In this document: piece after piece, positions 12,757-62,916 of the stretch
Layout of the letters: each line of letters begins with the position of its first letter
Numbering within the stretch: the stretch's first letter is position 1
DNA from: an uncultured Bacteroidales bacterium
Lineage (GTDB): Bacteria > Bacteroidota > Bacteroidia > Bacteroidales > JAFGXI01
NCBI GenBank assembly: GCA_947311115.1
Contig: CAMZKE010000078.1
Location: 33,892 to 97,891, forward strand
DNA length: 64,000 bases
Direction of reading: 5' to 3'
Translations under genes and position numbers: made by a program
Notes under the pieces: generated by a model
What the model was told of the DNA's origin: nothing
The model's database searches: none
The model's input: the letters and a program-made list of their open reading frames with translations, nothing else

Positions 12757-13251
12757 ATGCGTGGCAAAAAGGAAATATACGATAAACTTAACGAGTTAAA
12801 TATAAAATTTGAGTACTACGAGCATCCTTCAATACCAACAATTGAACTTGCAAAAATTCATAAAAAAGATATTGATGCAACTCATTGCAAGAATGTTTTT
12901 TTACGAAACCACAAAGGTAAAAAGCATTATTTTGTGGTATTAGAACAAAGTAAAAATGTAAATATTCGTCAATTAGAATTAATGTTAAAGCAAGGAAAAT
13001 TAAGTTTTGCAAGTGATAAACGACTAACTAAATACCTAAATACAAAACAAGGAGCTGTATCGCCACTTGGCTTAATTTTCGATGAAGAAAATAATACAAC
13101 TTTATTTATTGATAAAGAGCTGGAAGGCGAGCAGAAGCTAAGTTTTCATCCTAATGTTGACTATGCAAGTTTAGTAATATCCTACGCCGATTTAATTAAG
13201 TATATCAAAAATAAAGGTATTAGCTATGAATTGCTGGATTTATCATTGTAA
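12757..13251 (+). CDS. YbaK/ProX-type aminoacyl-tRNA editing domain protein
   Basis: This 164-aa protein has HCKNVFLRNHKGKKHYFVVL and GAVSPLGL segments resembling trans-editing YbaK/prolyl-tRNA-synthetase-associated domains. Confidence 0.6.
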   Translation: MRGKKEIYDKLNELNIKFEYYEHPSIPTIELAKIHKKDIDATHCKNVFLRNHKGKKHYFVVLEQSKNVNIRQLELMLKQGKLSFASDKRLTKYLNTKQGAVSPLGLIFDEENNTTLFIDKELEGEQKLSFHPNVDYASLVISYADLIKYIKNKGISYELLDLSL

Positions 13252-17444: not shown

Positions 17445-17486
17445 TAAATAAATTTTAAAAATTAAATTAGAATCATATAACACTTA

Positions 17487-19137: not shown

Positions 19138-19177
19138 TTTTATAAATTTTATAGTTAATAATTTGTTTTATTTGTTT

Positions 19178-34443: not shown

Positions 34444-34517
34444 TTTGCAAAATTATGAAATTTTAATGGGATATTATAAAAACCTTATAGTAACATATTA
34501 ACAATATGATATATTTT

Positions 34518-34606
34518 TATCTGTTTGGGTTAAATTACACGCTACTTGGGGCGTATAAATATTATTTCCCGTAATGATACTTTGTTCGCTTGCGGCTAGA
34601 AGATTA
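34518..34606 (+). repeat. Copy B (the diverged copy) of the two-hairpin repeat family
   Basis: TATCTGTTTGGGTTAAATTACACGCTACTTGGGGCGTATAAAT...CTTTGTTCGCTTGCGGCTAGAAGATT aligns with copies A and C along its whole length. Confidence 0.7.
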
Positions 34607-34626
34607 ATTAACGAGTAGTAAAGTAT

Positions 34627-35733: not shown

Positions 35734-35734
35734 T

Positions 35735-38563: not shown

Positions 38564-38634
38564 ATAAGTTTTTTAAACAAAACAAATTGTATTTTAGCAA
38601 AAACAGATTAAATATAAACTTTAAATAAATAAAA

Positions 38635-39480: not shown

Positions 39481-39516
39481 AACTAATTCAAAATTCAAAA
39501 TTTATAATTATTAAAG

Positions 39517-40038
39517 ATGGCATTTTTTAAAGAAGATTTAGTAAAAGTAAAAGCATTTGTTTTCGATGTCGATGGTGTATTCTCACAAGCAATATTGCAT
39601 TTGCATCATTCTGGTGATATAATGCGAACAACAAATATAAAAGATGGTTTTGCAGTACAACACGCAATAAAACAGGGCTATAAAATTTGTATAATATCCG
39701 GTGGAAGTTCAGAATCTATTCCTCCACGTTTTAAAGCTTTAGGGGTAGAGGATATTTACATGAAATCGTATCATAAAGTTAAAAATTATGAAGAGTTTTT
39801 AGCAAAATATAGTTTAACTGATAAAGATGTTCTTTATATGGGTGATGATTTACCTGATTATCCTGTAATGAAGAGGGTAGGAGTGCCTACTTGTCCGCTT
39901 GATGCTGCTGAAGAAATAAAAGCAATTTCGGCTTATATTTCAGATAAAAAAGGAGGCGAAGCATGTGTGCGTGATGTAATTGAACAGGTTATGCGTACCC
40001 AAAACAAATGGCTTGTTCCTGAAGCGTTTGAGTGGTAA
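39517..40038 (+). CDS. kdsC: 3-deoxy-D-manno-octulosonate 8-phosphate phosphatase (HAD-IIIA, KdsC family)
   Basis: The motifs are FVFDVDGV, NIKDG, IISGG and YMGDDLPD, in a protein of about 173 aa. Confidence 0.85.
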   Translation: MAFFKEDLVKVKAFVFDVDGVFSQAILHLHHSGDIMRTTNIKDGFAVQHAIKQGYKICIISGGSSESIPPRFKALGVEDIYMKSYHKVKNYEEFLAKYSLTDKDVLYMGDDLPDYPVMKRVGVPTCPLDAAEEIKAISAYISDKKGGEACVRDVIEQVMRTQNKWLVPEAFEW

Positions 40039-40303
40039 AATATTGTAGTAAAGTAGATCGTGAATACAATTACAATATACAGATAATCATTTTTTACACT
40101 TATAACCCTCACAAAGGGTTTACAAGGCAGACACACACTAAAAATAATATAATTCAATAATATTACGTATAGTTTATTTGTAACCCTAATTATTAATATT
40201 GATTAACCCAAATTATTCATAGAAATTTAAAATTTAACAATTAAATCCATAATAACTAACTGATTAACCCAAAATGCAAACACCCCAATTTGGTTAATTA
40301 ATT

Positions 40304-40406
40304 TTATGCATTTTTCTTTTCCTGATACTTTGTTGCAAACCATTTGCAGTATTCATATACAGCTTCATGGTTCTACGATTTGTCTAAGAAAAACGTATGA
40401 ATAATG
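40304..40406 (-). repeat. Left copy of a 102/103-nt inverted repeat pair (partner at 50057..50158)
   Basis: The reverse complement aligns with 50057-50158. By hand alignment, 90 of 102 positions are identical, with one 1-nt indel. It contains a 45-nt core hairpin (40332-40376) of the form GTAGAACCAT...ATGGTTTGCAAC. It starts 23 nt after the gatD stop codon. Confidence 0.85.
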
Positions 40407-40428
40407 CGGGCTATAGAAGTTTCCTAAA

Positions 40429-41814
40429 TTATTTTCTCACATCTTTAATAAAATTTTCAACTTCAGGTACACCACCTTGAAGCACAATATATCCGTTATA
40501 AGGTTCTCGTTCAGTAATTTCGTCATTAACAGGAGTTAACATCATTTCTTTTACTTTAACAGGGTCTTTAGTTTGTCCCATTACCCAACCAAGTTTAACC
40601 CAAGCAACTTCAGGCAACATATTACCAAGCGGAGTTATTCCCATTGCCATAAGGTCGCGACCGGTATCGTAAACAAACATATGTACATATCCCCAAAGAG
40701 TTTGAAGGGTCATAAATAGTAACACTCCTTTTTCTTTAGCTCGTTTAATTGCCGGGTATAAATCTTTATTTACGTGACCTAAACCTGTACCAACAATAAT
40801 AATACCTTCGTAACCATTATCAATCATAGAATCTAATGAATCAGGTTGCATACCCGGCCAAAAGTAAAGCATTCCTATCTTTTTAGAGAAAAAAGGTTTT
40901 ATATCTACATTTTTATCTTTTCTACGAGGCTTATAGTCTTTTTTTATAGGAGTTTGAGAGTTACGTGTAATCATTGCAAGTGGTGTATCTCCAATAGTAC
41001 GAAAAGTAGAACGATACGACGAGTGCATTTTTCTTACACGAGTACCCTTGTGTAGCAATCCGTAATCGTCAGAAGTTGGGCCAAACATACATACCATAAC
41101 TTCTGCTATATCGCCATTACCTGCGGCATTCATAGCATGCATAAGGTTAAGTGCTGCATCAGAGCTAGGTCTATCTGACGAACGTTGCGACCCAACAAGC
41201 ACAATAGGTATAGGCGAGTTTTGCACCATAAATGTTAATGCTGCAGCAGTATGATGCAAAGTATCGGTTCCGTGTCCAATAACAATACCATCAATACCGT
41301 TTTCAATTTCTTTACCAATAGCTTTTGCAAGAGCAATATATTGGTCTGGCCCCATATTCTCAGAAAATACAGCAAAAACTTTTTCTGTATCTAAATTACA
41401 GATATCAGCTAACTCAGGCACAGCACCGTATAATTCGCCGGGTGAAAATGCAGGAATTACAGCACCTGTACGATAATCTAATCGTGAGGCTATTGTTCCG
41501 CCTGTTCCAAAAAGTTTTACACTCGGCAAACCCGGTGTATTAGGAAATTCTTGTTCAGGAATTGCGTAATTAGCTTTTTTGTAGCCTGTTTCTACCATTG
41601 TATTAATAGTAGTAACGTCAACTCCAATATTGTAGCCTGTAATTACTTTTACAACAATATGTAAATCGTCGTCGTTTTCCGAACGAGGTAAAATAGTTCC
41701 TTTAAATATACCACGAGTTGTGTCTATTTCTGCTTGACCCCAAACTCTTACATTATATTTCTTTAAAAGCTTTAAAGCTTCTCCTTTGTATCCTTGAAAA
41801 AAATCAGCATTCAT
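40429..41814 (-). CDS. gatD: Glutamyl-tRNA(Gln) amidotransferase subunit D (archaeal-type, asparaginase fold)
   Basis: The GatD-specific N-terminal domain reads DDLHIVVKVITGYNIGVDV. The asparaginase-type motifs are FGTGGTIASRLDYRTGAV, GHGTDTLHHTAAAL, SQRSSDRPSSDAALN, KMHSSYRSTF and VGTGLGH. The C-terminal motif is LPEVAWVKLGWVMGQT. The gene lies 6 nt downstream of gatE. Confidence 0.9.
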   Translation of the reverse strand: MNADFFQGYKGEALKLLKKYNVRVWGQAEIDTTRGIFKGTILPRSENDDDLHIVVKVITGYNIGVDVTTINTMVETGYKKANYAIPEQEFPNTPGLPSVKLFGTGGTIASRLDYRTGAVIPAFSPGELYGAVPELADICNLDTEKVFAVFSENMGPDQYIALAKAIGKEIENGIDGIVIGHGTDTLHHTAAALTFMVQNSPIPIVLVGSQRSSDRPSSDAALNLMHAMNAAGNGDIAEVMVCMFGPTSDDYGLLHKGTRVRKMHSSYRSTFRTIGDTPLAMITRNSQTPIKKDYKPRRKDKNVDIKPFFSKKIGMLYFWPGMQPDSLDSMIDNGYEGIIIVGTGLGHVNKDLYPAIKRAKEKGVLLFMTLQTLWGYVHMFVYDTGRDLMAMGITPLGNMLPEVAWVKLGWVMGQTKDPVKVKEMMLTPVNDEITEREPYNGYIVLQGGVPEVENFIKDVRK

Positions 41815-41820
41815 CTTTTT

Positions 41821-43794
41821 TTAATTTTTTAGTTTTGAAATAGTTTTTCTTAACTCTTTTAAATCAATATTTCCAATAGCCTGTTTTCGTAATTCACCCA
41901 TTACCCAGTTTATTATTGCATCTTCATGTTTATTTTTATTAATTACTTTAAATTTTTCTAACAGAAAACCTACTGGTGCTATAAGTTCATCTTTTGTACG
42001 CTTTTTAAATTTAACATCTTCTAAAACTGATGTTAATTGCATGCGTGGATGCTGATATATCATTGGTAAAATTTCTTCGGCTATATTTAGGTTTAATTTC
42101 TCATCTTTAATAAACTTAAACAAATCGTAAATTACATTATAATTAAACTCGGCTCCAGCAGTGTAATGACCTTCTACATATTTTAACTTATGACCTAAAA
42201 ATGTGCCTATAAATTTTGCATTAATTTTTAAGTCTTTTACAATTTTTTCAATTAATGGCACCAAATTGTTTTTAAGAATGTATGTGAAAGTATCTTCAGG
42301 TATTTTCCATTTTCTGAGCTGTGCAAAACGGTCAACAACCTCAACAGGCATTCTCTTTGCTAATTTATCAATATATTCGTTTGCCAATGGTATTGGCGCT
42401 GAATCGGTATCAGGATACATTCTGTCGGCACCAGGCAATACTCTTTCAAAAATAGTACTTCCGTCGTGGAAAGATTTACGAGTTTCTTCAGGTACACCTT
42501 CAAAAGCCATTTGGCAACGTTCCTCTATAACTTCAAGAGCAGTTTGCATATCTTCTTCGGGTCCCCAAATTATTATTTGAGCATCGTTATCGCCTGCACC
42601 AAGCATAGGTGCAATTATTTCTAAATCTATATCTGTTATTATTGGTTCAAAATCTTCGGTATGAACCATGTTTGGTTTTTCAAGACAAGCTATTACTTTT
42701 AAACGGTCTGCAATTTCATTAGCAAATATTTTTGTTGGCTGTGTAAAATGTGACATTATACCCTTAAATTCAGGTAAATTTATTGCAATTAGTTTAAATC
42801 CATTATCTTTAGCATCTTTAATAGGTTCGTAAGTAATATTGAACATATCAAAATCGAGATATTCGTAATTCATTTTCCAATTTTTTGGATTTGAAACACG
42901 TTTGTTTAATTCTTTTTTTATAGCAAGTAATGCCCATTGTCTGTATGATTCAACATGAGTAAGCTCTGGAATCCATTTTGTATGTGCTACTCCTTTTATT
43001 TCAATACGAGTTCCGCCTTTGCAACTTACATTTACATCTTGACGACCAGCTCCCTGGCCTGTACGCACTTTGTCAGTACTACGGTTTAAGAAACGTATAT
43101 AATCGCAAGCCTCTTTAACTTCATCAGGGTTTACCATTTCCGGATATGTAACTGTTTCAATTAATGGCATTCCTAAACGGTCAGTCTTATATACTCGTTT
43201 GTGTCCAATATCAGATATTTCTCTAGCACTATCTTCTTCAATACTAAGTTGAATAAGTTTTACTTTTTTGTTTTTTAATGGTATTTCGCCTTCAACACCT
43301 AAAATAGCTGTACGCTGAAATCCGGCAGGAATACTACCATCTAAATATTGTTTACGAGTAATATGTACTTCGCCTACAATATTAAATTTACATAAAAGTG
43401 AAATTTCTAAAGCATTTTCTAAAGCTTCTCTATCCATAGGAAATGGCGGAGTATCATCAATTTCGTATGTACAAGCATTCTTGTTATTTATTCTATATGT
43501 TATTTCTTTTCGAGTCCTAAACTCCATTAATGCTGTACCATCGTACTCGCCAAGTTCGGAAAGTGTTGGCCGCATGTGGCGAATTAACTCAGCATCGTAA
43601 TCATCGTGCTTATTAAAAACTCCTGCCGGACAATGACAAAAAAGTTTCTTTTTTGTTAAAATTTGCTGATGGACCTCCAGCCCGGACATAAAACCAATTC
43701 TGTCGTAATCTTTTTGTGTAGCTTCCTTACGAGATACGTAGCCAATAGCCTTTTTGGTTTTCTCGTAGTTTTGTTTAGGATCAAACTTATTCAT
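41821..43794 (-). CDS. gatE: Glutamyl-tRNA(Gln) amidotransferase subunit E (archaeal-type)
   Basis: This 657-aa protein has the GatB/E core (GLEVHQQI, KLFCHCP, MRPTLSELGEYD, YEIDDTPPFP, SIPAGFQRTAILG, SIEEDSAREI, GAGRQDVNVS). It also has the long insertion and C-terminal extension typical of GatE rather than the roughly 480-aa GatB. It is paired with gatD. Confidence 0.88.
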   Translation of the reverse strand: MNKFDPKQNYEKTKKAIGYVSRKEATQKDYDRIGFMSGLEVHQQILTKKKLFCHCPAGVFNKHDDYDAELIRHMRPTLSELGEYDGTALMEFRTRKEITYRINNKNACTYEIDDTPPFPMDREALENALEISLLCKFNIVGEVHITRKQYLDGSIPAGFQRTAILGVEGEIPLKNKKVKLIQLSIEEDSAREISDIGHKRVYKTDRLGMPLIETVTYPEMVNPDEVKEACDYIRFLNRSTDKVRTGQGAGRQDVNVSCKGGTRIEIKGVAHTKWIPELTHVESYRQWALLAIKKELNKRVSNPKNWKMNYEYLDFDMFNITYEPIKDAKDNGFKLIAINLPEFKGIMSHFTQPTKIFANEIADRLKVIACLEKPNMVHTEDFEPIITDIDLEIIAPMLGAGDNDAQIIIWGPEEDMQTALEVIEERCQMAFEGVPEETRKSFHDGSTIFERVLPGADRMYPDTDSAPIPLANEYIDKLAKRMPVEVVDRFAQLRKWKIPEDTFTYILKNNLVPLIEKIVKDLKINAKFIGTFLGHKLKYVEGHYTAGAEFNYNVIYDLFKFIKDEKLNLNIAEEILPMIYQHPRMQLTSVLEDVKFKKRTKDELIAPVGFLLEKFKVINKNKHEDAIINWVMGELRKQAIGNIDLKELRKTISKLKN

Positions 43795-43932
43795 ACTCTA
43801 TACTTCTACTTTATAAAAAATATAAGCTATAAAAGTAATGTGTATTTTTTATTTTTTAGAATTTTTGACTAATAAAAAATAAATTGATTAATTATTAGTT
43901 GACTTTTAGTGTTTTAAAAACTGTAAATAGTA

Positions 43933-46005
43933 TTAATGAGTGTAAATATTATTAGAATTTCTGTATCCGGAATTATTAGAATACCAATCAGTGTAAATAC
44001 TTCCTCCACTTTCAGCCCAATTTCCAAATTTTAAATACGCATCAATAACCGATGCTTTTTCTTTTGGATAATCAAAAGTTTTTGGAATATTTATAGCCCA
44101 AGGTAAATTTCGAGTTGTTTTATAATACCTGTTAGATGGTGGATTACTATCATCATTTCCTGTTCCTAATAAGTTTTCATCGGCTAAATCAGTTGGAGTC
44201 ATATCTGCTAAATGTACTTCTTTACCTCTGTCTAAATCAATAATAATAAATGGATTGTATGGCGGTGTGCCTAAAATATCACTTCTTATAGGGGTGTTAA
44301 ATTTAATTACTAGCTTTATTGTATCAGGTTGTACGTAAGTACTTCCAATTACTGTATTTATTCCTGTGCCACCTCCAGGATGTGTTAATACATTAAACGC
44401 ATTATCAAAGACTACAATTACAGCGTTTGTTTGTCCACTTTCAGTGCCATTAGAAGAAATATTTATATACGACTCTTGAATATTTTGCCCTTTTATTGAG
44501 CTTATTAAACTTGGCGATATAGGTAGCTCAAATGCAAAACCGTTTTTATAGCTTGCACCAATTGCTTTAACTATAAATTTCACATCCATCTCTGTTATTA
44601 GATTTTCAGGATTTGAAATGCTATTAAATTGATAATCAATAACCAAATCGTTATAATCATAATCTCCTGTATATGGCCATAAATCTTCAAAAGCTAATGT
44701 TCCAAAAGTTTCGCTATTTGGAAAAGCTGTATTAAATGCTTTTGTGTTGTCGTCAGGATAATCATCGGCATTATCATTTATTCCATCACCATCGGTATCT
44801 TGACTATCAGAGTCAACAGTTTCTATGTTATCGGTAGTAATAGCTGTACTAGGGCTTGCTGTTGCATAAAATACAGCATCATTAAAATCATTATCGCACC
44901 AACTTTCTCTGTTTAAATCTTCGAAACCAATTAAAACTAAATTACGCTGATTATCATAAAGTAAAACATTATGCTGCTTTAAACTAACATCGGTCTCGGG
45001 ATTAAATTCAGGAATAGAATAATAATTATATTTTCCATCTCCTACATTTGTACCATTCCAAGCATCAGACACTAAAAACCAGCCAATAACTGTTCCTGAT
45101 GGAAATTCATTAACAAAGGATTGGGTATTTTCATCATAATATTTTAATTGAACTTTATCGCCTGTTTGTAATTCGCCTCCCGAATTTAAGTACGATGTGT
45201 TAGGAAATGCAATTGTGTAATTATTTATATCATCAACCGAAGTTGGTGGATTATCTTGTTGATATGTGAAATAACCCAAAGTATTACGATACCCGGCACC
45301 TTCATGCACAAATGTTATCCACACTTCTGCATTTTCCTGTAAAACTAGATTTGTTTCTACTCCAGCTAAAAATTCAGGGTGAGTTACAGGTATTCCACCG
45401 GATACATTTTCAGGTAACGATGTGTTAATATCATCTAACAAACCCTGTTCAACTATATCAGAAATAGGATATAAATAATCGGGTAATCCTTGAGAATTCC
45501 AAGCCCCTAATGTTAAATATCCATTTTGCTTTACTTTATGTATTGATTTGTTTGTATTTACAGTATTTATACCTCCAAATGTATAATTTATATTAGATGC
45601 TGTTGAAAATTCAATATTTGTTTCTACCCCTAAATATCTTGGTGATATATAAATTTTTTCTAAGCTTTTTGGAACAAAAATAGTACTAAATAACTGTCCA
45701 TTATTATCGGTTACTCCTGAATATAATAGGTTTGCTTTTTTATTTTGTTGAGCTTCAAACGATGAATTTGCATCATAAATATCAATTCTAACATTGTTTA
45801 AAGCAGAACCATCGTTTGCTTTAGCAAAAAGTTGTAAATCAATATTTTTAATTAATTTATAGTCGAAATACTTATCAATTTTTAAATCATTTAATGCTTG
45901 AGGTTTTATTGTAGCAGGTATATCCTCGTTAATCTCATCTTTATTACACGATGAGAATATAAACAATATAATAGCAGAAATTATAGTTAAATACTTTATA
46001 TACAT
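43933..46005 (-). CDS. LruC-domain (DUF4842) surface lipoprotein with DUF4114-like and thrombospondin-type Ca-binding segments
   Basis: The lipobox is FIFSSCNKDE. GFEDLNRESWCDNDFNDAVFY is DUF4114-like. DSDSQDTDGDGINDNADDYPDD is a TSP3-like calcium-binding segment. AFEDLWPYTGDYDYNDLVIDY is the LruC/DUF4842 hallmark. Confidence 0.7.
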   Translation of the reverse strand: MYIKYLTIISAIILFIFSSCNKDEINEDIPATIKPQALNDLKIDKYFDYKLIKNIDLQLFAKANDGSALNNVRIDIYDANSSFEAQQNKKANLLYSGVTDNNGQLFSTIFVPKSLEKIYISPRYLGVETNIEFSTASNINYTFGGINTVNTNKSIHKVKQNGYLTLGAWNSQGLPDYLYPISDIVEQGLLDDINTSLPENVSGGIPVTHPEFLAGVETNLVLQENAEVWITFVHEGAGYRNTLGYFTYQQDNPPTSVDDINNYTIAFPNTSYLNSGGELQTGDKVQLKYYDENTQSFVNEFPSGTVIGWFLVSDAWNGTNVGDGKYNYYSIPEFNPETDVSLKQHNVLLYDNQRNLVLIGFEDLNRESWCDNDFNDAVFYATASPSTAITTDNIETVDSDSQDTDGDGINDNADDYPDDNTKAFNTAFPNSETFGTLAFEDLWPYTGDYDYNDLVIDYQFNSISNPENLITEMDVKFIVKAIGASYKNGFAFELPISPSLISSIKGQNIQESYINISSNGTESGQTNAVIVVFDNAFNVLTHPGGGTGINTVIGSTYVQPDTIKLVIKFNTPIRSDILGTPPYNPFIIIDLDRGKEVHLADMTPTDLADENLLGTGNDDSNPPSNRYYKTTRNLPWAINIPKTFDYPKEKASVIDAYLKFGNWAESGGSIYTDWYSNNSGYRNSNNIYTH

Positions 46006-46184
46006 AATCTTGATTTTTAGTTGTTTTATACAGCTTTTACAATCAGAACTACGATATAAATAAATTCTGGTTTCAGTTTAATATAGAAACCTTATTATCA
46101 GTGCTTAAATTGAGTGTTTGTACTTATTTTATCTTACTTTATATTATTAAAATTTGTCGTTAAATACCGATGTATTTTATAAAT

Positions 46185-46400
46185 TTACTCCGATATAATA
46201 CTAATATTATTCTCGTTTAACAATTTAATTGTTTTGCTACAAATATTATTATCTTTAATTATTAAACTTATTTGCACATCTGGTTTTACTGTTTTTATTG
46301 CTTTAGATTGTTCAATAATTTTTAAACCATCTTTAACAATAATACGACTTTTTCGCTTTTTTACAATAGCTATTTCATTTTTTGATAATTGCAACAATTT
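46185..46400 (-). CDS. Possible small hypothetical protein (about 70 aa); its 5' end is obscured by repeat copy C
   Basis: The open frame reads LLQLSKNEIAIVKKRKSRIIVKDGLKIIEQSKAIKTVKPDVQISLIIKDNNICSKTIKLLNENNISIISE. The only ATG (46457) lies inside the repeat element, so the real start, if any, would be a TTG near 46395. I cannot assign a family. Confidence 0.25.
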   Translation of the reverse strand, partial: KLLQLSKNEIAIVKKRKSRIIVKDGLKIIEQSKAIKTVKPDVQISLIIKDNNICSKTIKLLNENNISIISE

Positions 46401-46497
46401 AATCTGTTTGGGTTTAATTCCCCGTCCCTTGGGACGTATAAAAGAATAGTATTCCAAAACGATACCTCATCCGCTTGCGGCGAGGAGATTCATTTTT
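46401..46497 (+). repeat. Copy C of the two-hairpin repeat family
   Basis: The first 43 nt are identical to copy A. The second hairpin is CCTCATCCGCTTGCGGCGAGG (a CUUG loop closed by CCG/CGG), followed by AGATTCATTTTT. Confidence 0.8.
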
Positions 46498-46546
46498 ACT
46501 ACATAAATTATAATCTTTTGAATTTAACTGTTTTGCTTCCATAAAT

Positions 46547-49500
46547 TTAATATTCAACATCAACAACACATCTAAAACCAACCCAGTTTGTAGGTTTCTG
46601 ATAATGACAATTTGTATTTTCTTTTCCCCCTGTCCAGTTACAGCCACGAGCAACACCTTTTTCCGATGTCATTTCCGAAACATTATCATCGAAAGCATAA
46701 ATACCAATTTTATTTCTCCAATAATAATAAACCGACGATGTTAAACCTTTGCTTATACGTGTATTAACAGCGTTCTCTTTTTTTGCAACAGGCGGAGTAA
46801 AATCTGGTTTTATCATACCTTCATCAGGCATATAAATTGAATCTAAAGTAAGAATATTATCCCATTCTTCAGGAGTAGGTAAACGATATGTAACACGCTT
46901 TGGAACATCAATACTTCTTGGATATTTTAAATGATATAGTTTATACAAACTGTTTATATATTCCGTACGCCATTGAGAATATAAAACTGCTTGCTCGTAT
47001 GTAACACCCACTAACGGATTATTATAGAAAGTTCTGTTTGTAAAATATTCTTTCGATAAATCTATTCCATCAACAATATAAGAGTTCCAAACACTTTCGT
47101 CAGGTAAAACTTCTTTATATTCAGGGCTATTAACACCATATCTGTTTTTTATAATATTTATAAATCCTAAGTAATCAATATTTCTCATTTCAAGAACATC
47201 TACCCCAAAATTTTTATTTAATAGTACTGTTCCCGGAGGTATTCTGCTCATAATTTTTGCAAAAATTAAACTATCAACCTTTTGTGGAAGTTCCATTTTT
47301 TGTCTGAAACCAACAAAAGGCGATGGCTCATTATTCCACTGTTCAGATAAGTTGTTATTAATTTTATTGAAATATGAATTACAACTACCACCCATAACTA
47401 TATTATTAGTATCAATAATTTCAGAAACATTTCCGATAAGCTTATTAATCCCCAATAAATTTGGCTGAGATTTATTTGTTAAATACGGATACTTATGATA
47501 TGTAAAATATTTAGTTAAAAACTTCTTATATTTAATTAATTTAGATGATTGTTCGTATAACTGTTTTGAATATTTCTCAGGTAAATCACCGTATTTTAAA
47601 TGTAATTCATCTGATGTTGTATAAGTGTATAAGCTATCGTTTATATATTTACTAATTTTATCGTAAAACGAAGTATTAATATTTGCAATATTTTGTAATT
47701 TATAATCAAGCATTTTACTTGACAGTCCTGATTTTTTTAAATATTCTTTTGCAAAATACTCCCATTCTTTTTTAGTTGGTAAATTAATTTCACTTACAAA
47801 ATTAGTATTTATATATGTTTGAGTCATCCATTTATTAAACTCATTAACAGCTTCGTAAGAAATATTTACTACAGGTAAATTATCGTATTTTAAATCTTTG
47901 AAATAATACAAATAGTTATCGTTATACTGCTCCCACAAACTATCTTTAGGTAAGTATTTTTTTGCAAGGTCAACTTTATTACTATCAATTAAATTAATAA
48001 TAAATTTACGCCAAATACCATTTGTTACTTCATTAATATTTATTAATCTAATATTCTTTACACTAACCTTAATATTCCATTTATTAAGAGTATCAGATTC
48101 GTAAAAAGAACTATCTATAACAATTTTTTTGAAATATTTTTTATAGTTTGTTGGATAATCGTTGTATCTATCATAATTGTAAGTACCAACAATTTTTAAT
48201 AAAGAATCTTTATGCAACTCTTCTTTTTCTTTTATTTTAACAACGTACCTGAAACCAATTGTTGAGTATTGAGTTTTTGGATTTACAAAACGCTTTAAAA
48301 ATATACCTGCCTTATTTACTTGTGTTTTCACATCATTAACATTGGTATATACCATCGACTCACGGTAATCTAAATAATTTGCACCAACCACTAAATATCC
48401 GTTTTTATCGTTTTTATTATCGTAGTAATCTTCAATTTTTGAACTTAACATATTATCGTCTGATGTTTTTAACATATTTTTATGTAAGGAATAAATATTA
48501 TCCCAATTAATTGCATAATTATCAGATAACCATTCAGAAACGTTGCCATCAAGCCATTCTATTCCGTTTTGTAAAATATGATTGTATTTTGTAGCGTAGC
48601 GTTTATCGTTTTTATATGTTGAGTTAAGATTTTTTAGCGATACATTTGTAATACTATTTTCAAATAAAAAATTCTTTTGCAATGAATAATTGCTTGATAA
48701 AACTTTATTATCTAACAATTTATCGAGTTCAGTTTTAGCTGCTGTTTTTGTAAATTGTAATTCGCACAACCAGTTAGATGAATTATTATAGCCTGTTGCT
48801 TGTTCGTATTCAATTAAACTTGGAAGTGTATATTCTACATCGTAATTTATACCAATATCGTTTAAATATTTTTGGTGAAAATGTTGTTTCCAATCTAAAA
48901 ACGCTAGAGCTTGATAATAATTAACTCCCATTACCGGATATTGCGAATTTTTATAATCTGAAAAATAAATAGGATTTACACTATAATAAGGATTAGCACT
49001 ATTTTTTTTAGGGAAATACAGTTCAATACTGTCAATAGGTGCAATACAAATATCTTGTTTAGATGAATCGAAAAAAGAATAATTATAAGCTTTATTTCTA
49101 TCTATTTTCCACACTAACCTCTCATCTGTAAGAGTATCAGAACTATTTAATTTTGATACTGTTTTATATTTTACAATATTATAAGTTAGTGTATTATATC
49201 CGTTTGTTTGCAATACCCAATTTAAAAACTCTTTATATTCTTTTACCGAAACTTCTTTTTTTGAGAAATAAAAAGGTTTAATTATTTTTTGAATTTGTTC
49301 TGAGCTTAACTGATTCAAATCAATTTTTCCATTTTTTGTTAACTTATAATTATTTAAGTAATAGATTATTGATGATGGTAAACTAATTATTTGGTTTGAT
49401 GGATAATAAACCGGTTTATCATTATTTATGTATGTTTCAAATTTATCAGGATTAATATTTGCAATATCTTGGCCTACATTGATATACACAAAATTGCCCA

Positions 49501-49786
49501 TGCCACTACTAAAAGGCTGACCGTTATAATAAGGCTCAAAAAAATTAAGTTTTTTATTAATACTGAATTCGTCGTTTAAATTTTCCGGCACTACAATAAA
49601 ACGCTTAATTTTTAACTTATAAGATACATTATTTGCTAATGTATTAAAGTATGGTCCGGGTAATTCTATTACTGTATCGTTTGTATTTGTTACAACTTTA
49701 TTTGTATCGCTAGCTATAGATTGTAAAGTTGAAAATGTAAAAATTGAAAATAATAAAATTGTTTTAAATAATTTTGAATAATTCAT
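46547..49786 (-). CDS. Large secreted protein with three FGE-sulfatase (SUMF1/GldJ-like) domains
   Basis: The signal peptide MNYSKLFKTILLFSIFTFSTLQSIA begins at ATG 49786. There are three domain endings of the FGE type: STIGFRYVVKI, PFVGFRQKM, and ARGCNW...WVGFRCVVDV at the C-terminus. Repeated PVVNISYEA/PLVGVTYEQA/PVMGVNYYQA motifs are also present. Confidence 0.7.
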   Translation of the reverse strand: MNYSKLFKTILLFSIFTFSTLQSIASDTNKVVTNTNDTVIELPGPYFNTLANNVSYKLKIKRFIVVPENLNDEFSINKKLNFFEPYYNGQPFSSGMGNFVYINVGQDIANINPDKFETYINNDKPVYYPSNQIISLPSSIIYYLNNYKLTKNGKIDLNQLSSEQIQKIIKPFYFSKKEVSVKEYKEFLNWVLQTNGYNTLTYNIVKYKTVSKLNSSDTLTDERLVWKIDRNKAYNYSFFDSSKQDICIAPIDSIELYFPKKNSANPYYSVNPIYFSDYKNSQYPVMGVNYYQALAFLDWKQHFHQKYLNDIGINYDVEYTLPSLIEYEQATGYNNSSNWLCELQFTKTAAKTELDKLLDNKVLSSNYSLQKNFLFENSITNVSLKNLNSTYKNDKRYATKYNHILQNGIEWLDGNVSEWLSDNYAINWDNIYSLHKNMLKTSDDNMLSSKIEDYYDNKNDKNGYLVVGANYLDYRESMVYTNVNDVKTQVNKAGIFLKRFVNPKTQYSTIGFRYVVKIKEKEELHKDSLLKIVGTYNYDRYNDYPTNYKKYFKKIVIDSSFYESDTLNKWNIKVSVKNIRLININEVTNGIWRKFIINLIDSNKVDLAKKYLPKDSLWEQYNDNYLYYFKDLKYDNLPVVNISYEAVNEFNKWMTQTYINTNFVSEINLPTKKEWEYFAKEYLKKSGLSSKMLDYKLQNIANINTSFYDKISKYINDSLYTYTTSDELHLKYGDLPEKYSKQLYEQSSKLIKYKKFLTKYFTYHKYPYLTNKSQPNLLGINKLIGNVSEIIDTNNIVMGGSCNSYFNKINNNLSEQWNNEPSPFVGFRQKMELPQKVDSLIFAKIMSRIPPGTVLLNKNFGVDVLEMRNIDYLGFINIIKNRYGVNSPEYKEVLPDESVWNSYIVDGIDLSKEYFTNRTFYNNPLVGVTYEQAVLYSQWRTEYINSLYKLYHLKYPRSIDVPKRVTYRLPTPEEWDNILTLDSIYMPDEGMIKPDFTPPVAKKENAVNTRISKGLTSSVYYYWRNKIGIYAFDDNVSEMTSEKGVARGCNWTGGKENTNCHYQKPTNWVGFRCVVDVEY

Positions 49787-49828
49787 TCTAAATAAGTTTA
49801 TATTATTGTATAATATTTTTATCGACTT

Positions 49829-49836
49829 CAAAGCTA
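49829..49836 (-). promoter_or_regulatory. Candidate -7 promoter motif (TAGCTTTG) for the triple-FGE gene
   Basis: The minus strand matches TAnnTTTG, 43 nt upstream of ATG 49786. It lies inside the ORF-track N-terminal extension, which supports the internal start. Confidence 0.35.
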
Positions 49837-50056
49837 ATATTTTTTCTAAAAAAAACAAAAAAAGTATTACATTAATGTAAATTAAGTGTGAAAAGCTAAA
49901 TTTTTCAGATATTATTATAAAAACAATTAAAACACTTGCTAATAAATATTAAAATAAAAATTTAATACAAAGTTGATTTAAAGATGTTAGTTGAGTATCA
50001 TCAGAATAGTAAAAATATGTAAAGTATTGTGAGGTTTTTTTAATATTTTTAACATA

Positions 50057-50158
50057 CATTATTCATACATTTTTATTAGACAAGGTGTTGAACCATGCTG
50101 CTGTATATTAATACTGCAAATGGTTTGCAACTAAGTGTCAGGAAAATAAAAAGCATAA
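50057..50158 (+). repeat. Right copy of the 102/103-nt inverted repeat pair (partner at 40304..40406)
   Basis: The sequence is CATTATTCATACATTTTTATTAGACAAGGTGTTGAACCATGCTGCTGTATATTAATACTGCAAATGGTTTGCAACTAAGTGTCAGGAAAATAAAAAGCATAA. The core hairpin is at 50087-50131. A perfect 16-nt palindrome, TTCCCAAATTTGGGAA, follows at 50173-50188. Confidence 0.85.
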
Positions 50159-50255: not shown

Positions 50256-50450
50256 CCTAAAATATCTTTTGTAATAAGGTTTAGTAAATGGATAATAGGT
50301 ACAGGTATTTATTTAGATGATGTTTATGATGAAATATCTGAATTAATAACTGATTCTTATAGGAGTTTAACAATACAACTATTTATTTTATTATTGTCGT
50401 TTATTGTAATGTATTTAATATTAAATAAATACATTAAAAAATTTTGTTAA
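50256..50450 (+). pseudogene. Remnant of a paralog of the downstream Cache sensor gene (region around the second TM segment)
   Basis: It translates to PKISFVIRFSKWIIGTGIYLDDVYDEISELITDSYRSLTIQLFILLLSFIVMYLILNKYIKKFC*. This aligns with residues about 329-395 of the 50578 ORF (PKISYVKKFAKWNWIVGSGVYLDDVYDEIAVLKADSYKNLAMQLFILLLSFVIMYFVLSYYLK). It has no start codon and lacks both the upstream and downstream domains. Confidence 0.75.
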
Positions 50451-50577: not shown

Positions 50578-53055
50578 ATGAAAAAAATCAGAATCAACAG
50601 TATTGCAAAAGCTGTAACTTTAATTATTCTTTCAACAATGTTCTTAATTTTTGTTCTCGTAGGAACATTTAGAGTTATAAAAACACAAAATGATTTATCA
50701 ATAAGGAAAGAAAAATTAATTGAATCGAGAAAAGAAAATCTTAAAAGTTTTATCGAAATAGCATTTAATACAATTCAAAAGAATTACGATAAATCGCAAA
50801 GTAAAGAGGAAATTAAATTAAGAGCCGGCGATAAACTTGAACAATCTGTTGATATATTAATAAGTTTATTGAAGACTTATTACAACCAGAACAAAAATAT
50901 TTTATCGGAAAACGATTTAAAAAATAATCTTATTAAAATTGTAAAAAATTATAAAGGCAAAAACAATGAGTATTTTTGGATAAATGATACTAGTTTACCG
51001 TATCCGGTGATGGTTATGCACCCTAATTCTCCACAACTTGATGGCAAAGTACTAAATAACTCAAAATATAACTGTGCGATGGGTAAAAATCAAAACTTAT
51101 TTCAAGCAATGGTTGAAGTTTGTAATAAGCATGGCGAAGGCTATGTCGATTATGTTTGGGATAAACCTACAAATAATGGCGTAAAACCAAATCAGCCTAA
51201 GTTATCTTTTGTAAAACTATTTAAGCCATATAAATGGGTTATTGGTACTGGTGCTTATATTGATGATATAGAAAATAATATTAAACAAGAATGTATAAAC
51301 GAAATTAAGCAAATGCGCTACGAAAACGGAACAGGTTATTTTTGGATAAACGACGATAAACTTCCGTACCCAACAATGATAATGCACCCAACAGCTCCTC
51401 AGCTTGATGGTAAAGTACTTGATAATCCTAAATATAATTGTGCAATGGGTAAAAACCAAAACCTTTTTCAAGCTATGGCTGAGGTTTGTAACAAGCAAGG
51501 AGATGGTTTTGTTGATTATGTTTGGAGCAAACCAACAAAAGATGGTTTAAAAACTGATGTTCCTAAAATATCTTACGTAAAGAAATTTGCCAAATGGAAT
51601 TGGATAGTAGGTTCAGGAGTATATCTTGATGATGTATATGATGAAATTGCTGTTTTAAAAGCGGATTCGTATAAGAATTTAGCTATGCAACTATTTATTT
51701 TATTATTATCTTTTGTAATTATGTATTTTGTGCTTAGTTATTATTTAAAAAATATTGTTGTAAAGCAACTAAAAGTTGTTCAAAATTCTATAAACAAGTT
51801 AAGTAGAGGTGTTTTTCCTGAGCCGTTAAAAGTTAAATCAGAAAACGAAATAGGTCAAATTACAAAATCGACAAACACAATGATAGAAAATTTAACTAAT
51901 GTAAAGGACTTTGCCTTAGAAGTGGGTAAAGGTAATTTAGATATGGAATTTTCTGCCCTAAGTGACGAAGATGAATTAGGTACATCGTTAATTGAAATGC
52001 GTAAAAATTTACAAGATGCCAGAGAAAAAGAACAAATAAGAAAAAAAGAAGATAAGCAACGTAATTGGGCTACTCAAGGATTAGCCAAGTTTGCTGAAAT
52101 TCTTAGAAATAATAACGATAATATTGAAGAGTTATCTTATTCAATAATAAGTAATTTAATCGATTATTTAGGAGCTAATCAAGGCGGATTCTTCTTATTA
52201 ACAAACACTGGTGAAGATGCTGTAAAAAATGAAGATAAATCGTTTAAGTTAGAAGCTTGTTATGCCTATAACAGAAAAAAATACTTAGAAAAAAATATAG
52301 AATGGGGCGAAGGTCTAATTGGTAGATGTGGATTGGAAATGCAAACTATTTTCTTAACTGATATTCCTGAAAATTATATAACAATTACTTCAGGTTTAGG
52401 CGATGCTAACCCAACAAGCTTATTACTTATACCATTGTTATTAAACGATGAAATATTTGGCGTAATAGAAATTGCTTCATTTAAAGTTTTTGAACCATAT
52501 CAAATAGAGTTTGTTGAAAAAGTAGGCGAGAGTATAGCATCAACTATTTCAAGTGTTCAAGTAAATAATAAAACTAAATTCTTATTAGAGCAATCGCAAC
52601 AACAAACCGAAGAAATGAAAGCTCAAGAGGAAGAAATGCGTCAGAATCTTGAAGAAATGCAGGCTACGCAAGAAGAAATGGCAAGAGCCAAGAAAGATGC
52701 TGAACAAGCTCAAAATAATTTAGATAGTGTAATGAATCCGATAATAAGTATTGATAAAGAGTTTAATATTACATATATAAACGAAGCCGGTATTAAGATT
52801 TCCGGAGTTTCAAAAGATAATGCCTTAACTAAAAAATGTTTTGAGCTGTGGGAAAATCCACACTGTCATACAGAAAACTGTAGATGTGCATTGGCAATGA
52901 CAAGCAAAAAAGAAGAAACAGGTAAAACAACAATAAATGCAACAAACGAAGAAATAGTATATACCGGTACACCAATATACGACGAAGAAGGAAATGTTAC
53001 CGGAGCCGTTGAAGAAATAATATTATTAACAGAACTTAAAAAAGTATTAAAATGA
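50578..53055 (+). CDS. Membrane sensor protein: tandem sCache-like domains, TM, HAMP, GAF, coiled coil and a Cys-rich PAS domain; no recognisable output domain
   Basis: TM1 is VTLIILSTMFLIFVLVG. There are two roughly 100-aa repeats (YFWIND..LPYP.M.MHP..PQLDGKVL.N.KYNCAMGKNQNLFQAM.EVCNK.G.G.VDYVW.KPT). TM2 is followed by a HAMP-like region, a GAF-like region (LGANQGGFFLL...FGVIEIASF), a QEEEMRQNLEEMQATQEEM coil, and a PAS-like C-terminus with C754, C763, C768 and C770. Confidence 0.75.
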   Translation: MKKIRINSIAKAVTLIILSTMFLIFVLVGTFRVIKTQNDLSIRKEKLIESRKENLKSFIEIAFNTIQKNYDKSQSKEEIKLRAGDKLEQSVDILISLLKTYYNQNKNILSENDLKNNLIKIVKNYKGKNNEYFWINDTSLPYPVMVMHPNSPQLDGKVLNNSKYNCAMGKNQNLFQAMVEVCNKHGEGYVDYVWDKPTNNGVKPNQPKLSFVKLFKPYKWVIGTGAYIDDIENNIKQECINEIKQMRYENGTGYFWINDDKLPYPTMIMHPTAPQLDGKVLDNPKYNCAMGKNQNLFQAMAEVCNKQGDGFVDYVWSKPTKDGLKTDVPKISYVKKFAKWNWIVGSGVYLDDVYDEIAVLKADSYKNLAMQLFILLLSFVIMYFVLSYYLKNIVVKQLKVVQNSINKLSRGVFPEPLKVKSENEIGQITKSTNTMIENLTNVKDFALEVGKGNLDMEFSALSDEDELGTSLIEMRKNLQDAREKEQIRKKEDKQRNWATQGLAKFAEILRNNNDNIEELSYSIISNLIDYLGANQGGFFLLTNTGEDAVKNEDKSFKLEACYAYNRKKYLEKNIEWGEGLIGRCGLEMQTIFLTDIPENYITITSGLGDANPTSLLLIPLLLNDEIFGVIEIASFKVFEPYQIEFVEKVGESIASTISSVQVNNKTKFLLEQSQQQTEEMKAQEEEMRQNLEEMQATQEEMARAKKDAEQAQNNLDSVMNPIISIDKEFNITYINEAGIKISGVSKDNALTKKCFELWENPHCHTENCRCALAMTSKKEETGKTTINATNEEIVYTGTPIYDEEGNVTGAVEEIILLTELKKVLK

Positions 53056-54475: not shown

Positions 54476-56065
54476 ATGACAAAGCAAATTTTTCTTATAG
54501 TGTTAGTTACACTATCGTTCTTTTTTGGAACAAACAATGCAGATGCACAAACAAATTTACCTCCTGAAATTTGTGGCAGATATGCTGAATTAAATTATTC
54601 AGGAACAATACCAACAGGATATACCGGTTATTGGATTGACTCCACAAATACAGTAGTAAATTGGTGGCAAGTTGTTAACCAAACACAAGGTAATGGACCT
54701 AACACAACTGCTGAAGTTGGAAACTATGGACAAAATGCTTTTGCATTTGTAACAACCAATGGTACTGAGCATGATACAACAGCTTGGGTTACTACTGTTT
54801 TTATGCAAAAACCAACAGTTGACGCATGTCCAAGTTGTTACAGATTAGAAAACGTAACACTTGATAATGTTAACGGTGGCTATACTGTTGAAATTGGAAG
54901 CGTACGTACTGATACAATATGTTTATACGATAATAGTTCCTTTTATACATTAAATCCGGCATTTAATATTGGTCAGCCAAAATGGTCAAAAAGTTTAAAC
55001 GGAATTGATTTTGCAAATGGCGTTCCTCCTGTTTATAATGAAACACAAGAAGCATACGATTCTGTGTATGTTAATATTTATAATTCTGATGAAGCTAATG
55101 CTGTCGGCGATTATTATATGTTAGTTTTTAAATCAGAAAATGGAGCCGGTTGTGCCGATTCTGACACATTACTTGTTTCGTTTGTAAAACAACCAAGTGC
55201 TACAATTGAATTTAGACAACCATATTGCCACGGTCAAGATGGACTTGTGTGGACTGCTATTGATTATGAAGCAAACCCAACAAGTTTTAATTGGGATTTC
55301 GGAAATAATGCAATTATAGATTCTACATATATTGATGTTACAACTCCTGATAGTGTATATTCAGTGTCTTGGGGAAATAATAATGATTGTGATAATCTTA
55401 TTCATCAAATTAGATTAACAGCAAGTAACGATTGGGGTTGTGTGTCATCATTAAATTCGGTATATGTTGAAGAACCCGGATTACCTAATCCTACATTTAA
55501 TAGTGTCCAACCCGATTGTGGAGTTGCTAATGGTATAATTAGAATCTCGCATGATAGTTTAATTGTTTGTGAAGACACAATAAATTATGCTTATTTACAT
55601 GAGTGGATTAATTCAACAATATCCGGTTATGATTATCAAGTTGATTATGGGAATAATACAATAATTGATTCATTAATTAATGTTTCGTCACAAGATACAA
55701 GTTGGTTAGAGTTTACATATACTTCTTTTATAACAAGCGACACATCTTGGGTTGGACCACAATTTCAGTGTAAAGATACAATACAAATAATTTTAGATGA
55801 TTGTACATTTATTTTTAACTATAATAATAATGAGGCAAACATTAATGTATATCCAAATCCAACAATTGAAAGTATTACAATTGAAGTAAATAATTATCAG
55901 CTTATTAAAAATAAAGAAATTATTACTATTACCAATTTAACAGGTAAAGTTGTTAAATCAAGTATTTTAGAGTCAAGTAATTTCACACTAAATGTTTCAG
56001 AATTAATAACAGGTATATACATATTAAAAATAGGAAATACAGTAAGTAAATTTGTGAAAGAATGA
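54476..56065 (+). CDS. Secreted Cys-rich protein with a T9SS type A C-terminal sorting domain
   Basis: A signal peptide is present. The C-terminal roughly 85 aa (INVYPNPTIESITIEVN...ITNLTGKVVKSS...ITGIYILKIGNTVSKFVKE) match the Por secretion tail pattern. Confidence 0.8.
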   Translation: MTKQIFLIVLVTLSFFFGTNNADAQTNLPPEICGRYAELNYSGTIPTGYTGYWIDSTNTVVNWWQVVNQTQGNGPNTTAEVGNYGQNAFAFVTTNGTEHDTTAWVTTVFMQKPTVDACPSCYRLENVTLDNVNGGYTVEIGSVRTDTICLYDNSSFYTLNPAFNIGQPKWSKSLNGIDFANGVPPVYNETQEAYDSVYVNIYNSDEANAVGDYYMLVFKSENGAGCADSDTLLVSFVKQPSATIEFRQPYCHGQDGLVWTAIDYEANPTSFNWDFGNNAIIDSTYIDVTTPDSVYSVSWGNNNDCDNLIHQIRLTASNDWGCVSSLNSVYVEEPGLPNPTFNSVQPDCGVANGIIRISHDSLIVCEDTINYAYLHEWINSTISGYDYQVDYGNNTIIDSLINVSSQDTSWLEFTYTSFITSDTSWVGPQFQCKDTIQIILDDCTFIFNYNNNEANINVYPNPTIESITIEVNNYQLIKNKEIITITNLTGKVVKSSILESSNFTLNVSELITGIYILKIGNTVSKFVKE

Positions 56066-62569: not shown

Positions 62570-62621
62570 AACTTGTTAATAAAAAAACAATTAAAAAATT
62601 ATTAAATTAAAAATAAAGCTT

Positions 62622-62629
62622 TAGATTTG
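62622..62629 (+). promoter_or_regulatory. Candidate -7 promoter motif (TAGATTTG) driving the cobalamin riboswitch
   Basis: Matches TAnnTTTG and ends 4 nt before the riboswitch P1 stem. Confidence 0.45.
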
Positions 62630-62632
62630 TAT

Positions 62633-62796: not shown

Positions 62797-62916
62797 CAAT
62801 TTTTCGTAGCTTTCGGGTGAAAAGGCTTAGAGGATATACTTTATTTATTCTCCATTCTTTATTCCGATTAGTGAACGAGTATTTAATATTATTTGTTTAA
62901 CTAATTTTTTATTAAA

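Follow-up and report, generated by a model that had tools for sequence, protein, structure and literature searches.

Two inverted copies of a 103-nt palindromic repeat lie at gene-order breakpoints around the gatED genes of an uncultured Bacteroidales bacterium

The closest described counterparts of the repeat reported here are the MITE-type intergenic repeats – RUP of Streptococcus pneumoniae (107 bp), Correia of Neisseria (approximately 104-157 bp), and ERIC of enterobacteria (approximately 127 bp) – together with the classical REPs, which are G+C-rich and 20-40 nt long (Delihas 2011, PMC3184786). Here, we analyze a 64-kb stretch of the genome of an uncultured Bacteroidales bacterium (64,000 nucleotides, referred to as the window), in which two copies of a 103-nt repeat in inverted orientation bracket a block of genes including gatD and gatE. 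We conclude with moderate confidence that the pair represents two copies of a lineage-specific, non-coding, imperfectly palindromic repeat of the REP/ERIC/RUP/Correia, MITE-like kind, located at gene-order breakpoints, and not the ends of an island.

The initial annotation described an inverted pair with 90 identical positions and one indel, and a global alignment of the reverse complement of the left copy with the right copy returns the same count (90 of 103 columns identical, one indel, longest identical run of 22 nt). A repeat search of the window reports inverted arms of 96 nt at 40311-40406 and 50057-50152 that are 88% complementary and separated by 9650 nt, and blastn within the window recovers the pair as a 106-nt match with 86.8% identity (E 1e-31); as a chance comparison, the second-ranked inverted repeat of the window is 65 nt long at 71%. 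The repeat has a G+C content of 27-32% and is non-coding; the ATG frame common to both copies differs only by non-synonymous changes and a frameshift. On reading the flanks, no target-site duplication is seen at the left copy, and the right copy has at most TA or TAT, which is meaningless in DNA of 30% G+C. The genes said to be enclosed – those for GatD, GatE, the LruC-domain protein, the 90-aa ORF, and the protein with three FGE domains – are all present, as is one copy of a separate 99-nt repeat (Table 1).

Table 1. Features of the repeat pair, the bracketed block and its neighbors (window coordinates)
Feature	Position	Strand	Remarks
YbaK-like tRNA-editing-domain gene	12757..13251	+	
KdsC-type phosphatase gene (kdsC)	39517..40038	+	
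Small hairpin GATTAACCCAAA...TTTGGTTAAT	40262..40300	.	Outer side of left copy
Left copy of the palindromic repeat	40304..40406	.	103 nt; 22 nt past gatD stop and 266 nt past kdsC stop, between these convergent genes
gatD	40429-41814	-	Archaeal-type Glu-tRNA(Gln) amidotransferase
gatE	41821-43794	-	Archaeal-type Glu-tRNA(Gln) amidotransferase
LruC-domain protein gene	43933-46005	-	DUF4114 + DUF4842
90-aa ORF	46185-46457	-	
99-nt repeat family, one copy	46399..46497	+	Separate family
Gene for protein with three FGE-sulfatase-type domains	46547..49786	-	Database gene call of 1079 aa, start at 49786
Right copy of the palindromic repeat	50057..50158	.	102 nt; inverted relative to left copy, in divergent spacer of the triple-FGE and Cache sensor genes
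Perfect 16-nt palindrome TTCCCAAATTTGGGAA	50173..50188	.	Outer side of right copy
Remnant of paralogous Cache sensor gene	50256..50438	+	Against Cache residues ~329-391; 62% amino acid identity, E 8e-23
Cache-HAMP-GAF-PAS sensor gene	50578-53055	+	
Porin-like gene	53052-54338	+	428 aa; overlaps sensor gene
T9SS-sorted protein gene	54476..56065	+	529 aa

Both copies fold as a long imperfect hairpin with about 32 consensus pairs, in which the terminal segments of approximately 25 nt pair with each other; such terminal inverted repeats forming a long stem-loop are a hallmark of MITEs, as are the small size (102-103 nt) and the lack of a transposase gene inside the element. All 14 differences between the copies fall in unpaired columns or preserve pairing; among them are a C-G to A-U double change and a change from U.G to C-G. 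The consensus structure was built from the same two copies, and two sequences provide almost no power to detect covariation. When one copy is given 13 random substitutions, the mutants fold as well as the actual second copy in only 2-4% of trials for the strand that is plus at the left copy and minus at the right copy (p 0.02-0.04), and hairpin retention on the other strand has p values of 0.08-0.44. The folding energies of the former strand are -23.1 and -25.1 kcal/mol, compared to -17.5 and -20.9 kcal/mol for the opposite strand, and the right copy has a folding z of -4.4. The 45-nt GTTG...CAAC core attributed to each copy is exact in the right one, but the left copy reads GTAG, which costs the outer stem one base pair.

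The small CCCAAA/TTTGGG palindromes noted earlier on the outer side of each copy are both present, and the pattern CCCAAA.{0,25}TTTGG occurs only at these two places in the 64 kb; taken as wholes, the outer flanks show no more similarity than shuffled sequence does. A terminator scan scores the palindrome beside the right copy as terminator-like on both strands, and no gene ends at that site. The truncated sensor remnant described just outside the right copy is borne out by its 62% match to Cache residues and, at a distance of about 100 nt from the repeat, constitutes a rearrangement scar.

No third copy of the repeat was found in the 64-kb window by blastn, and with a covariance model run with filters off all other matches in the window scored 20 bits or less. 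Searches of 190 related or otherwise fetched loci (about 2.2 Mb) with nhmmer, and of 1.36 Mb of such loci with the covariance model, recovered no copies, nor were any found in plasmid and phage records; the genome, viral, and metagenome collections that were scanned yielded chance matches only. On these searches the repeat is most likely restricted to this Bacteroidales lineage. A precise empty site was not found because the corresponding spacers of relatives are rearranged and do not align.

The genomes of at least 589 Bacteroidales species have gatE and gatD as a conserved pair (75-97% identity), with GatD 95-97% identical in the closest relatives, and the pair is kept in 80 of the 80 related loci retained; gatED thus belongs to the core and is inherited vertically. 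At loci L082/L083, L092, and L190 the next same-strand gene downstream of gatD is a homologue of the 529-aa protein gene, which in the window sits 12.7 kb away on the opposite strand from gatD. The initial annotation raised the prospect of finding kdsC next to the Cache sensor gene wherever the block is absent, but in L101, L102, and L103 kdsC is followed by a homologue of the YbaK-like gene, and not by gatD or the sensor gene. In the nearest relative, L082, the LruC gene and the 90-aa ORF are syntenic with gatED (DUF4842-gatE-gatD together), and the DNA homology to L082 ends at 46405, inside the 99-nt repeat copy, so that this copy marks the join between an orf90-LruC-gatED segment and an FGE segment. 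The triple-FGE protein has its nearest homologues at only 62-63% identity, encoded in unrelated contexts; in L096/L097 the FGE gene is located among housekeeping genes and not with gatED. Given the gatD-529-aa and kdsC-YbaK adjacencies and the location of the FGE gene elsewhere in relatives, the bracketed block is therefore a mosaic of core genes in which two or more ancestral segments meet, with a join at the 99-nt repeat. Both copies of the 103-nt repeat are located at gene-order breakpoints relative to these genomes, and the window contains at least six further breakpoints without any repeat. Gene order changes unusually fast in this group: between genomes that are still 83-87% identical in DNA, it is scrambled at almost all inter-operon spacers.

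Other repeats are also present in this group of genomes. The 99-nt repeat is a second lineage-specific family, with three copies that are also at breakpoints. The spot after gatD is occupied in L083, L092, and L190 by three different long hairpins, all unrelated to the 103-nt repeat. The hairpin of the L083 type (GTCATTGCGAGCG...CGCTCGCAATGAC) recurs in L101 (9920-10000), L102 (7183-7219), and L094 (238-286), and the Band7-kdsC spacer offers a clean comparison of a filled with an empty site for it. This family (L082/L083, L101, L102, L094) resembles the 103-nt repeat in occupying the same position after gatD as the left copy, in forming a long stable hairpin (-47.7 kcal/mol), and in being dispersed over several spacers with presence or absence varying between genomes; it differs in its unrelated sequence, its length of about 68 nt, its high G+C content, and its absence from the window.

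Several other explanations for the paired geometry warrant consideration. Inverted repeats around several genes could delimit a genomic island or composite transposon with gatED, the LruC gene, and the FGE gene as cargo, and other bacteria are known to carry composite structures between a pair of MITE copies (PMC13367494). The ends of an old insertion or island, as initially proposed, are contradicted by the kdsC-YbaK order, by the core nature of gatED – paired at the loci of all those hundreds of species – and by contents that do not form a unit and are not co-located in relatives, where kdsC is not beside the Cache sensor gene. Direct repeats do not flank the pair, and Pfam scans of 40 ORFs of at least 150 aa across the whole window found no transposase, recombinase, integrase, or RAYT, in keeping with the earlier remark that none lies inside the block. 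We found neither movement as a unit, nor outer flanks that are adjacent in relatives, nor a mobility gene, and consider a mobile unit very unlikely. A 9.65-kb segment that inverts actively (phase variation), through a site-specific recombinase or homologous recombination between the arms, is hardly to be expected either. The arms do surround genes that include those for surface or lipoprotein-type products, but known invertible segments have near-perfect arms, and these are just 87% identical with no stretch of identity beyond 22 nt; with no recombinase gene nearby, or anywhere in the 64 kb, active inversion is therefore unlikely. Flipping would, moreover, join or cut no recognizable promoter, and the block genes all read in one direction and would only be moved. 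What survives of the initial suggestion of an invertible or rearranged segment is rearrangement in a weak sense, in that both copies are at breakpoints and gatD has lost its ancestral neighbor.

A past inversion is less improbable, though still unlikely: the pair could have arisen when the gatED block was turned around, either as an inverted duplication of a breakpoint sequence through staggered breaks or because a small element underwent intramolecular replicative transposition. Alternatively, recombination between two existing copies could have inverted the block. On this view the genome may hold just these two. The breakpoints at both copies are consistent with this, as are their proximity and inverted orientation, the truncation of a sensor gene about 100 nt beyond the right copy, and the arrangement of gatD, which is now convergent with kdsC while its ancestral same-strand neighbor is on the other strand; flipping 40407-50056 back makes gatD and the 529-aa gene co-oriented. 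However, exact restoration of that adjacency requires a right end near 54420 rather than 50057, a flip between the repeats recovers neither ancestral adjacency, the ends show no inverted target-site pattern, and the other breakpoints in the window lack a repeat. Several events would be needed in any case, given the mosaic make-up of the block and its additional junction at 46405. We are more doubtful of another of the initial suggestions, that the repeat is a small structured RNA – an sRNA gene or a cis-acting element – with the plus strand functional at the left copy and the minus strand at the right. Retention of the hairpin beyond chance on that strand only, its stabler fold there in both copies, one compensatory change and the U.G to C-G change, and the small CCCAAA/TTTGG hairpin beside each copy all point in this direction. 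Against it, Rfam gave no match for either copy at gathering scores (E-value mode returned only chance-level hits, E of at least 0.6, far below threshold), and no Bacteroidetes-type promoter box (TAnnTTTG) is present in the left spacer or adjoins either copy; the sole box of the right spacer, at 49836 on the minus strand, is downstream of the repeat and fits the promoter of the FGE gene itself. The two contexts are also unlike – the 3' region of convergent genes versus a divergent promoter region – no homologue was found in any relative searched, a pattern seldom expected of a functional RNA, and the covariation signal is that of two sequences that also define the structure.

Under the preferred reading of two copies of a MITE-like repeat, the element would belong to this genome's own hairpin-repeat family, spread by transposition in trans or by recombination; dispersal is inferred by analogy only, because just two copies are visible, 9.65 kb apart. 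The left copy probably serves as a 3' hairpin – a terminator or RNA-end stabilizer – for the convergent kdsC and gatD transcripts, and the unrelated hairpins after gatD in relatives presumably play the same part, although the long hairpin at the left copy was not among the terminators called by the scan. No gene ends at the right copy, which is probably a passive insertion. Palindromic repeats may have promoted the breaks behind the local scrambling of gene order. It would be surprising, in our estimation, if the hairpin were kept by selection on one strand and proved to be an undescribed structured RNA of the lineage, or if long A+T-rich palindromes were the break-and-rejoin points that drive the scrambling, with this pair as an inversion scar.

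Annotation of the gatED/LruC/FGE block as an island or phase-variable cassette is not warranted. For this uncultured Bacteroidales lineage, the analysis contributes two repeat families, the undescribed palindromic one and the 99-nt one. Such a finding is rather ordinary and has little significance beyond annotation. The more useful by-product is comparative, in that four close lineages have four unrelated long hairpins after gatD, and the clade is a reasonable setting for studying the turnover of terminator-like repeats and its link to rearrangements.

Among known systems, two small inverted elements around several kilobases of genes recall the TIME-COMPs (PMC13367494) and inversions between inverted IS copies. 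The present case differs in that the genes between the elements belong to the chromosomal core and come from separate ancestral locations, the arms have diverged by 13%, and Tn3-type end sequences, transposase, and resolvase are all lacking. REP proper, a short G+C-rich stem-loop with RAYT, does not describe a 103-nt A+T-rich unit for which the window holds no RAYT-type transposase gene and for which no U-tract terminator was called. The left copy is nonetheless like REP/BIME and the SPRITE of S. pneumoniae (PMC3184786) in being a palindrome just past a stop codon between convergent genes, a possible 3' hairpin, with other hairpin families at the equivalent place in relatives. From RUP, Correia, and ERIC the repeat differs in lacking sequence similarity to any known element, a recognizable target-site duplication, and a cognate transposase within 64 kb, and in being very A+T-rich with two copies in the window. 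It shares with them a similar size (approximately 100-130 bp in the known elements), an intergenic location, the lack of coding capacity, confinement to a single lineage, paired terminal arms that form one long imperfect stem-loop, and a position at gene ends and rearrangement junctions.

The 102/103-nt inverted repeat pair reported in the initial annotation is real. It is recovered by a repeat search of the window (96-nt arms, 88% complementary, spacing 9650 nt), by blastn within the window, which lengthens the match to 106 nt (86.8%, E 1e-31), and by global alignment of the two copies, which are identical in 90 of 103 columns with one indel, 22 nt being the longest uninterrupted match. The runner-up among inverted repeats of the 64 kb window spans 65 nt (71%), and no third copy was found there by blastn or with covariance model R1, filters off. 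Similarity between the flanks is not significant relative to shuffled sequence. Small CCCAAA/TTTGG hairpins are indeed present, one on the outer side of each copy, and account for both occurrences of the pattern CCCAAA.{0,25}TTTGG in the window. The enclosed genes are as originally listed – encoding GatD, GatE, an LruC-domain protein, a 90-aa ORF and a triple-FGE protein, with one copy of a repeat measured here at 99 nt – and the scan of 40 large ORFs across the window likewise found no transposase or recombinase gene.

Both copies are imperfect palindromes that form a single long hairpin of ~32 pairs each, and the 103-nt unit has the putative termini TTATGC...GTATGAATAATG. All 14 inter-copy differences are in unpaired columns or preserve pairing (a double change from C-G to A-U, and one from U.G to C-G); since these two sequences also supplied the consensus structure, that count is to some extent circular. 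As a fairer test, we mutated 13 random positions in one copy, refolded it, and compared its stability with that of the real other copy; 2-4% of trials matched it (left copy on the window-plus strand, right copy on the window-minus strand), versus 8-44% on the opposite strand. The hairpin is thus retained, with a modest strand preference. A peptide-coding reading, from an ATG frame shared by the copies (MLLYINTANGLQ... and MKLYMNTANGLQ...), was rejected, as all differences are non-synonymous and the indel shifts the frame; the element is not protein-coding.

The search for further copies in related genomes, as had been proposed, found none. The element is absent from all other fetched loci (~2.2 Mb, nhmmer), and covariance model R1 has no match beyond the window in 1.36 Mb of them. 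A 31-mer with one N has no match in the genome contigs collection, a conserved 22-mer has none in viral or metagenome contigs, and blastn found none in plasmids and phages. The single match of the 22-mer in genome contigs, inside an Agriterribacter coding region, was rejected because its flanks are unrelated, and nhmmer recognised none of the 15 matches, in unrelated taxa, to a two-terminus gapped pattern.

The window derives from the chromosome of an uncultured, low-G+C (30%) Bacteroidales bacterium, and the gatE-gatD pair within the block is core, not cargo. At least 589 stretches in a one-genome-per-species collection encode a GatD relative (hundreds of Bacteroidales and Lentimicrobiaceae species genomes), and gatE is directly upstream of gatD in 80 of the 80 loci kept, wherever the contig extends far enough. 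GatD and GatE both score above their NCBIfam equivalog cut-offs, as the archaeal-type enzyme. These amidotransferase genes form a conserved, vertically inherited pair (loci L001-L080).

The nearest GatD relatives (95-97% identical) are in three lineages, represented by loci L082/L083, L092 and L190, with DNA ~87% identical to the window across gatED. Downstream of gatD, at a gap of ~110 nt and on the same strand, each has a homologue of the window's 529-aa gene, whose product is a T9SS-sorted protein. In L082, as in the window, an LruC-domain gene and small ORF precede gatE, and homology ends at window position 46405, exactly at the start of a 99-nt repeat copy; beyond this point a radical-SAM gene follows, not the FGE gene. 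Homologues of the FGE protein are only 62-63% identical, and are located between glycoside hydrolase and ychF/gcvT genes or adjoining ubiD/der. The proposed test of whether kdsC adjoins the Cache sensor where the block is absent gave a negative answer, since kdsC is followed instead by a YbaK-like tRNA-editing gene in L101, L102 and L103 (94%, 92% and 73% identity). It follows that the block combines at least two ancestral segments in a mosaic, and that both repeat copies are at gene-order breakpoints.

Several other properties of the neighborhood were noted. The triple-FGE protein is uncommon: of 5.8 billion proteins, only 14 reach E <=1e-30. Its best NCBIfam match is GldK/PorK-like and far under the cut-off, and its gene region has the lowest G+C of the window (24-27%). 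The truncated sensor-gene remnant outside the right copy, also an earlier observation, is a Cache sensor paralogue with the end of the Cache domain and a transmembrane helix, truncated on both sides, and 62% identical in amino acids (E 8e-23) to residues 329-391 encoded by the complete gene that follows. The 825-aa Cache-HAMP-GAF-PAS protein has no recognisable output domain, and its stop codon overlaps the start of the porin-like 428-aa gene by 4 nt; in relatives a divergent DUF4212/sodium:solute symporter pair precedes the porin-like gene instead. Loci with this porin-like gene (L093-L095) were dropped as orthologous anchors, as their DNA is only 72% identical and the next gene along has 45% identity with the 529-aa gene, versus 63% for the gatD-linked homologue.

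Different long hairpins are also found right after gatD in the three closely related lineages: GTCATTGCGAGCG...CGCTCGCAATGAC in L082/L083, AGATGTGAGATGC...CATATCTCACATCT in L092, and CCCTCTCTTTAGGAGAGGG... in L190. No two of them are related, nor is any related to the window element, such that four different hairpins occupy one site 3' of gatD. The L083-type family is dispersed, and it fills the Band7-kdsC spacer in L101 and L102 whereas the window has a clean, empty site. The 99-nt family of the window forms two G+C-rich hairpins in which some changes appear compensatory, is on the plus strand in all three copies regardless of neighboring gene orientation, and was not found in ~2.2 Mb of loci from relatives; two of the three copies are exactly at synteny breaks with L082 and L101. 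Each genome of the clade thus carries private hairpin-repeat families, which are gained and lost in spacers and recur at the gatD 3' end. By its position and by analogy with the relatives' hairpins, the left copy probably serves the kdsC and gatD transcripts, which converge there, as their 3' hairpin.

Positions of repeats, hairpins and other features in the window and in related loci (L numbers)
Feature	Sequence	Positions	Strand	Remarks
103-nt element, left copy	window	40304-40406		arm 40311-40406
103-nt element, right copy	window	50057-50158		arm 50057-50152
99-nt repeat family	window	6736-6834, 34515-34609, 46399-46497	all +	lineage-specific
L083-type family	L082	8838-8952		relatives' dispersed G+C-rich palindromes
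L083-type family	L101	9920-10000
L083-type family	L102	7183-7219
L083-type family	L094	238-286
L083-type family, empty site	window	39481-39516
Hairpin after gatD	L083	3546-3613		68 nt, G+C-rich, -47.7 kcal/mol
Hairpin after gatD	L092	2074-2130		-33 kcal/mol
Hairpin after gatD	L190	about 1735-1775
gatE-gatD	window	40429-43794
Triple-FGE gene	window	46547-49786
TAnnTTTG box	window	49836	minus
Cache sensor fragment	window	50256-50438
Cache-HAMP-GAF-PAS gene	window	within 50578-54338
529-aa gene	window	54476-56065
YbaK-like gene	window	12757-13251
8-nt tandem array	window	17470-17630		~20 copies
Cobalamin riboswitch	window	62623-62804		Rfam RF00174, 74.7 bits
SpoIIE-type phosphatase genes	window	4775-6727, 14718-16244		paralogues

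In this clade the order of genes is broken up at almost all inter-operon spacers, so finding a repeat at a breakpoint does little to show that the repeat caused the break. Relative to window 12.7-40 kb, L101 and L102 are heavily reordered though the DNA is still 83-87% identical: L101 joins, in order, segments 34633-40037, 12754-13252, 18975-20726 and 31738-34534, and L102 joins 34628-40038, 12754-13251 and 62572-63994. The cobalamin riboswitch precedes the last gene of the window, and its homologous region in L102 directly follows the ybaK-like gene. Elsewhere, the 8-nt tandem array (AACCATAG / AACAATAG / AGCAATAG) is immediately upstream of a class-III aminotransferase gene (start 17633), and the SpoIIE-type paralogues share several 43-85-nt stretches of 71-81% identity.

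On balance, the element is probably a new REP/MITE-like intergenic repeat, palindromic and confined to its lineage. Because gatD has been parted from its ancestral downstream neighbor and is turned toward kdsC instead, the left junction took part in some inversion or translocation, and an old inversion in which the element originated, or to which it contributed, is a tentative and rather unlikely explanation. The inversion that exactly restores gatD-to-529-aa adjacency has its right end at ~54420, after the porin-like gene terminator and not at the right repeat, a flip between the repeats restores neither of the two ancestral adjacencies, and at least six further window breakpoints (versus L101 and L102) have no repeat. 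No one inversion turns the relatives' adjacencies into the window order, and GC skew was uninformative as a test of recent inversion, as it tracks gene strand across the whole window.

We give little credence to a structured RNA with a function, a reading to be set beside the retained hairpin; neither copy has an Rfam match, the left spacer contains no Bacteroidetes-type -7 box (TAnnTTTG), and the sole box of the right spacer (TTTG 23 nt upstream), which has the element on one side and the FGE start codon on the other, fits a promoter of the FGE gene itself. The initial annotation had also raised an island or an invertible segment from the bracketing repeats. Both an island and an active inverton run counter to the synteny, to the absence of mobility genes from the 40 large ORFs scanned and to the 13% divergence of the arms, and both are hardly credible. 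MITEs are characterised as elements that carry no transposase, have terminal inverted repeats and target-site duplications, and fold into long stem-loops (Delihas 2011, PMC3184786). The element, a candidate for MITEs proper rather than an established member, departs from them in showing no recognisable target-site duplications; it resembles them in its terminal arms, its lack of coding capacity, and its size, comparable examples being RUP (107 bp), Correia (about 104-157 bp) and ERIC (about 127 bp; Delihas 2011, PMC3184786).
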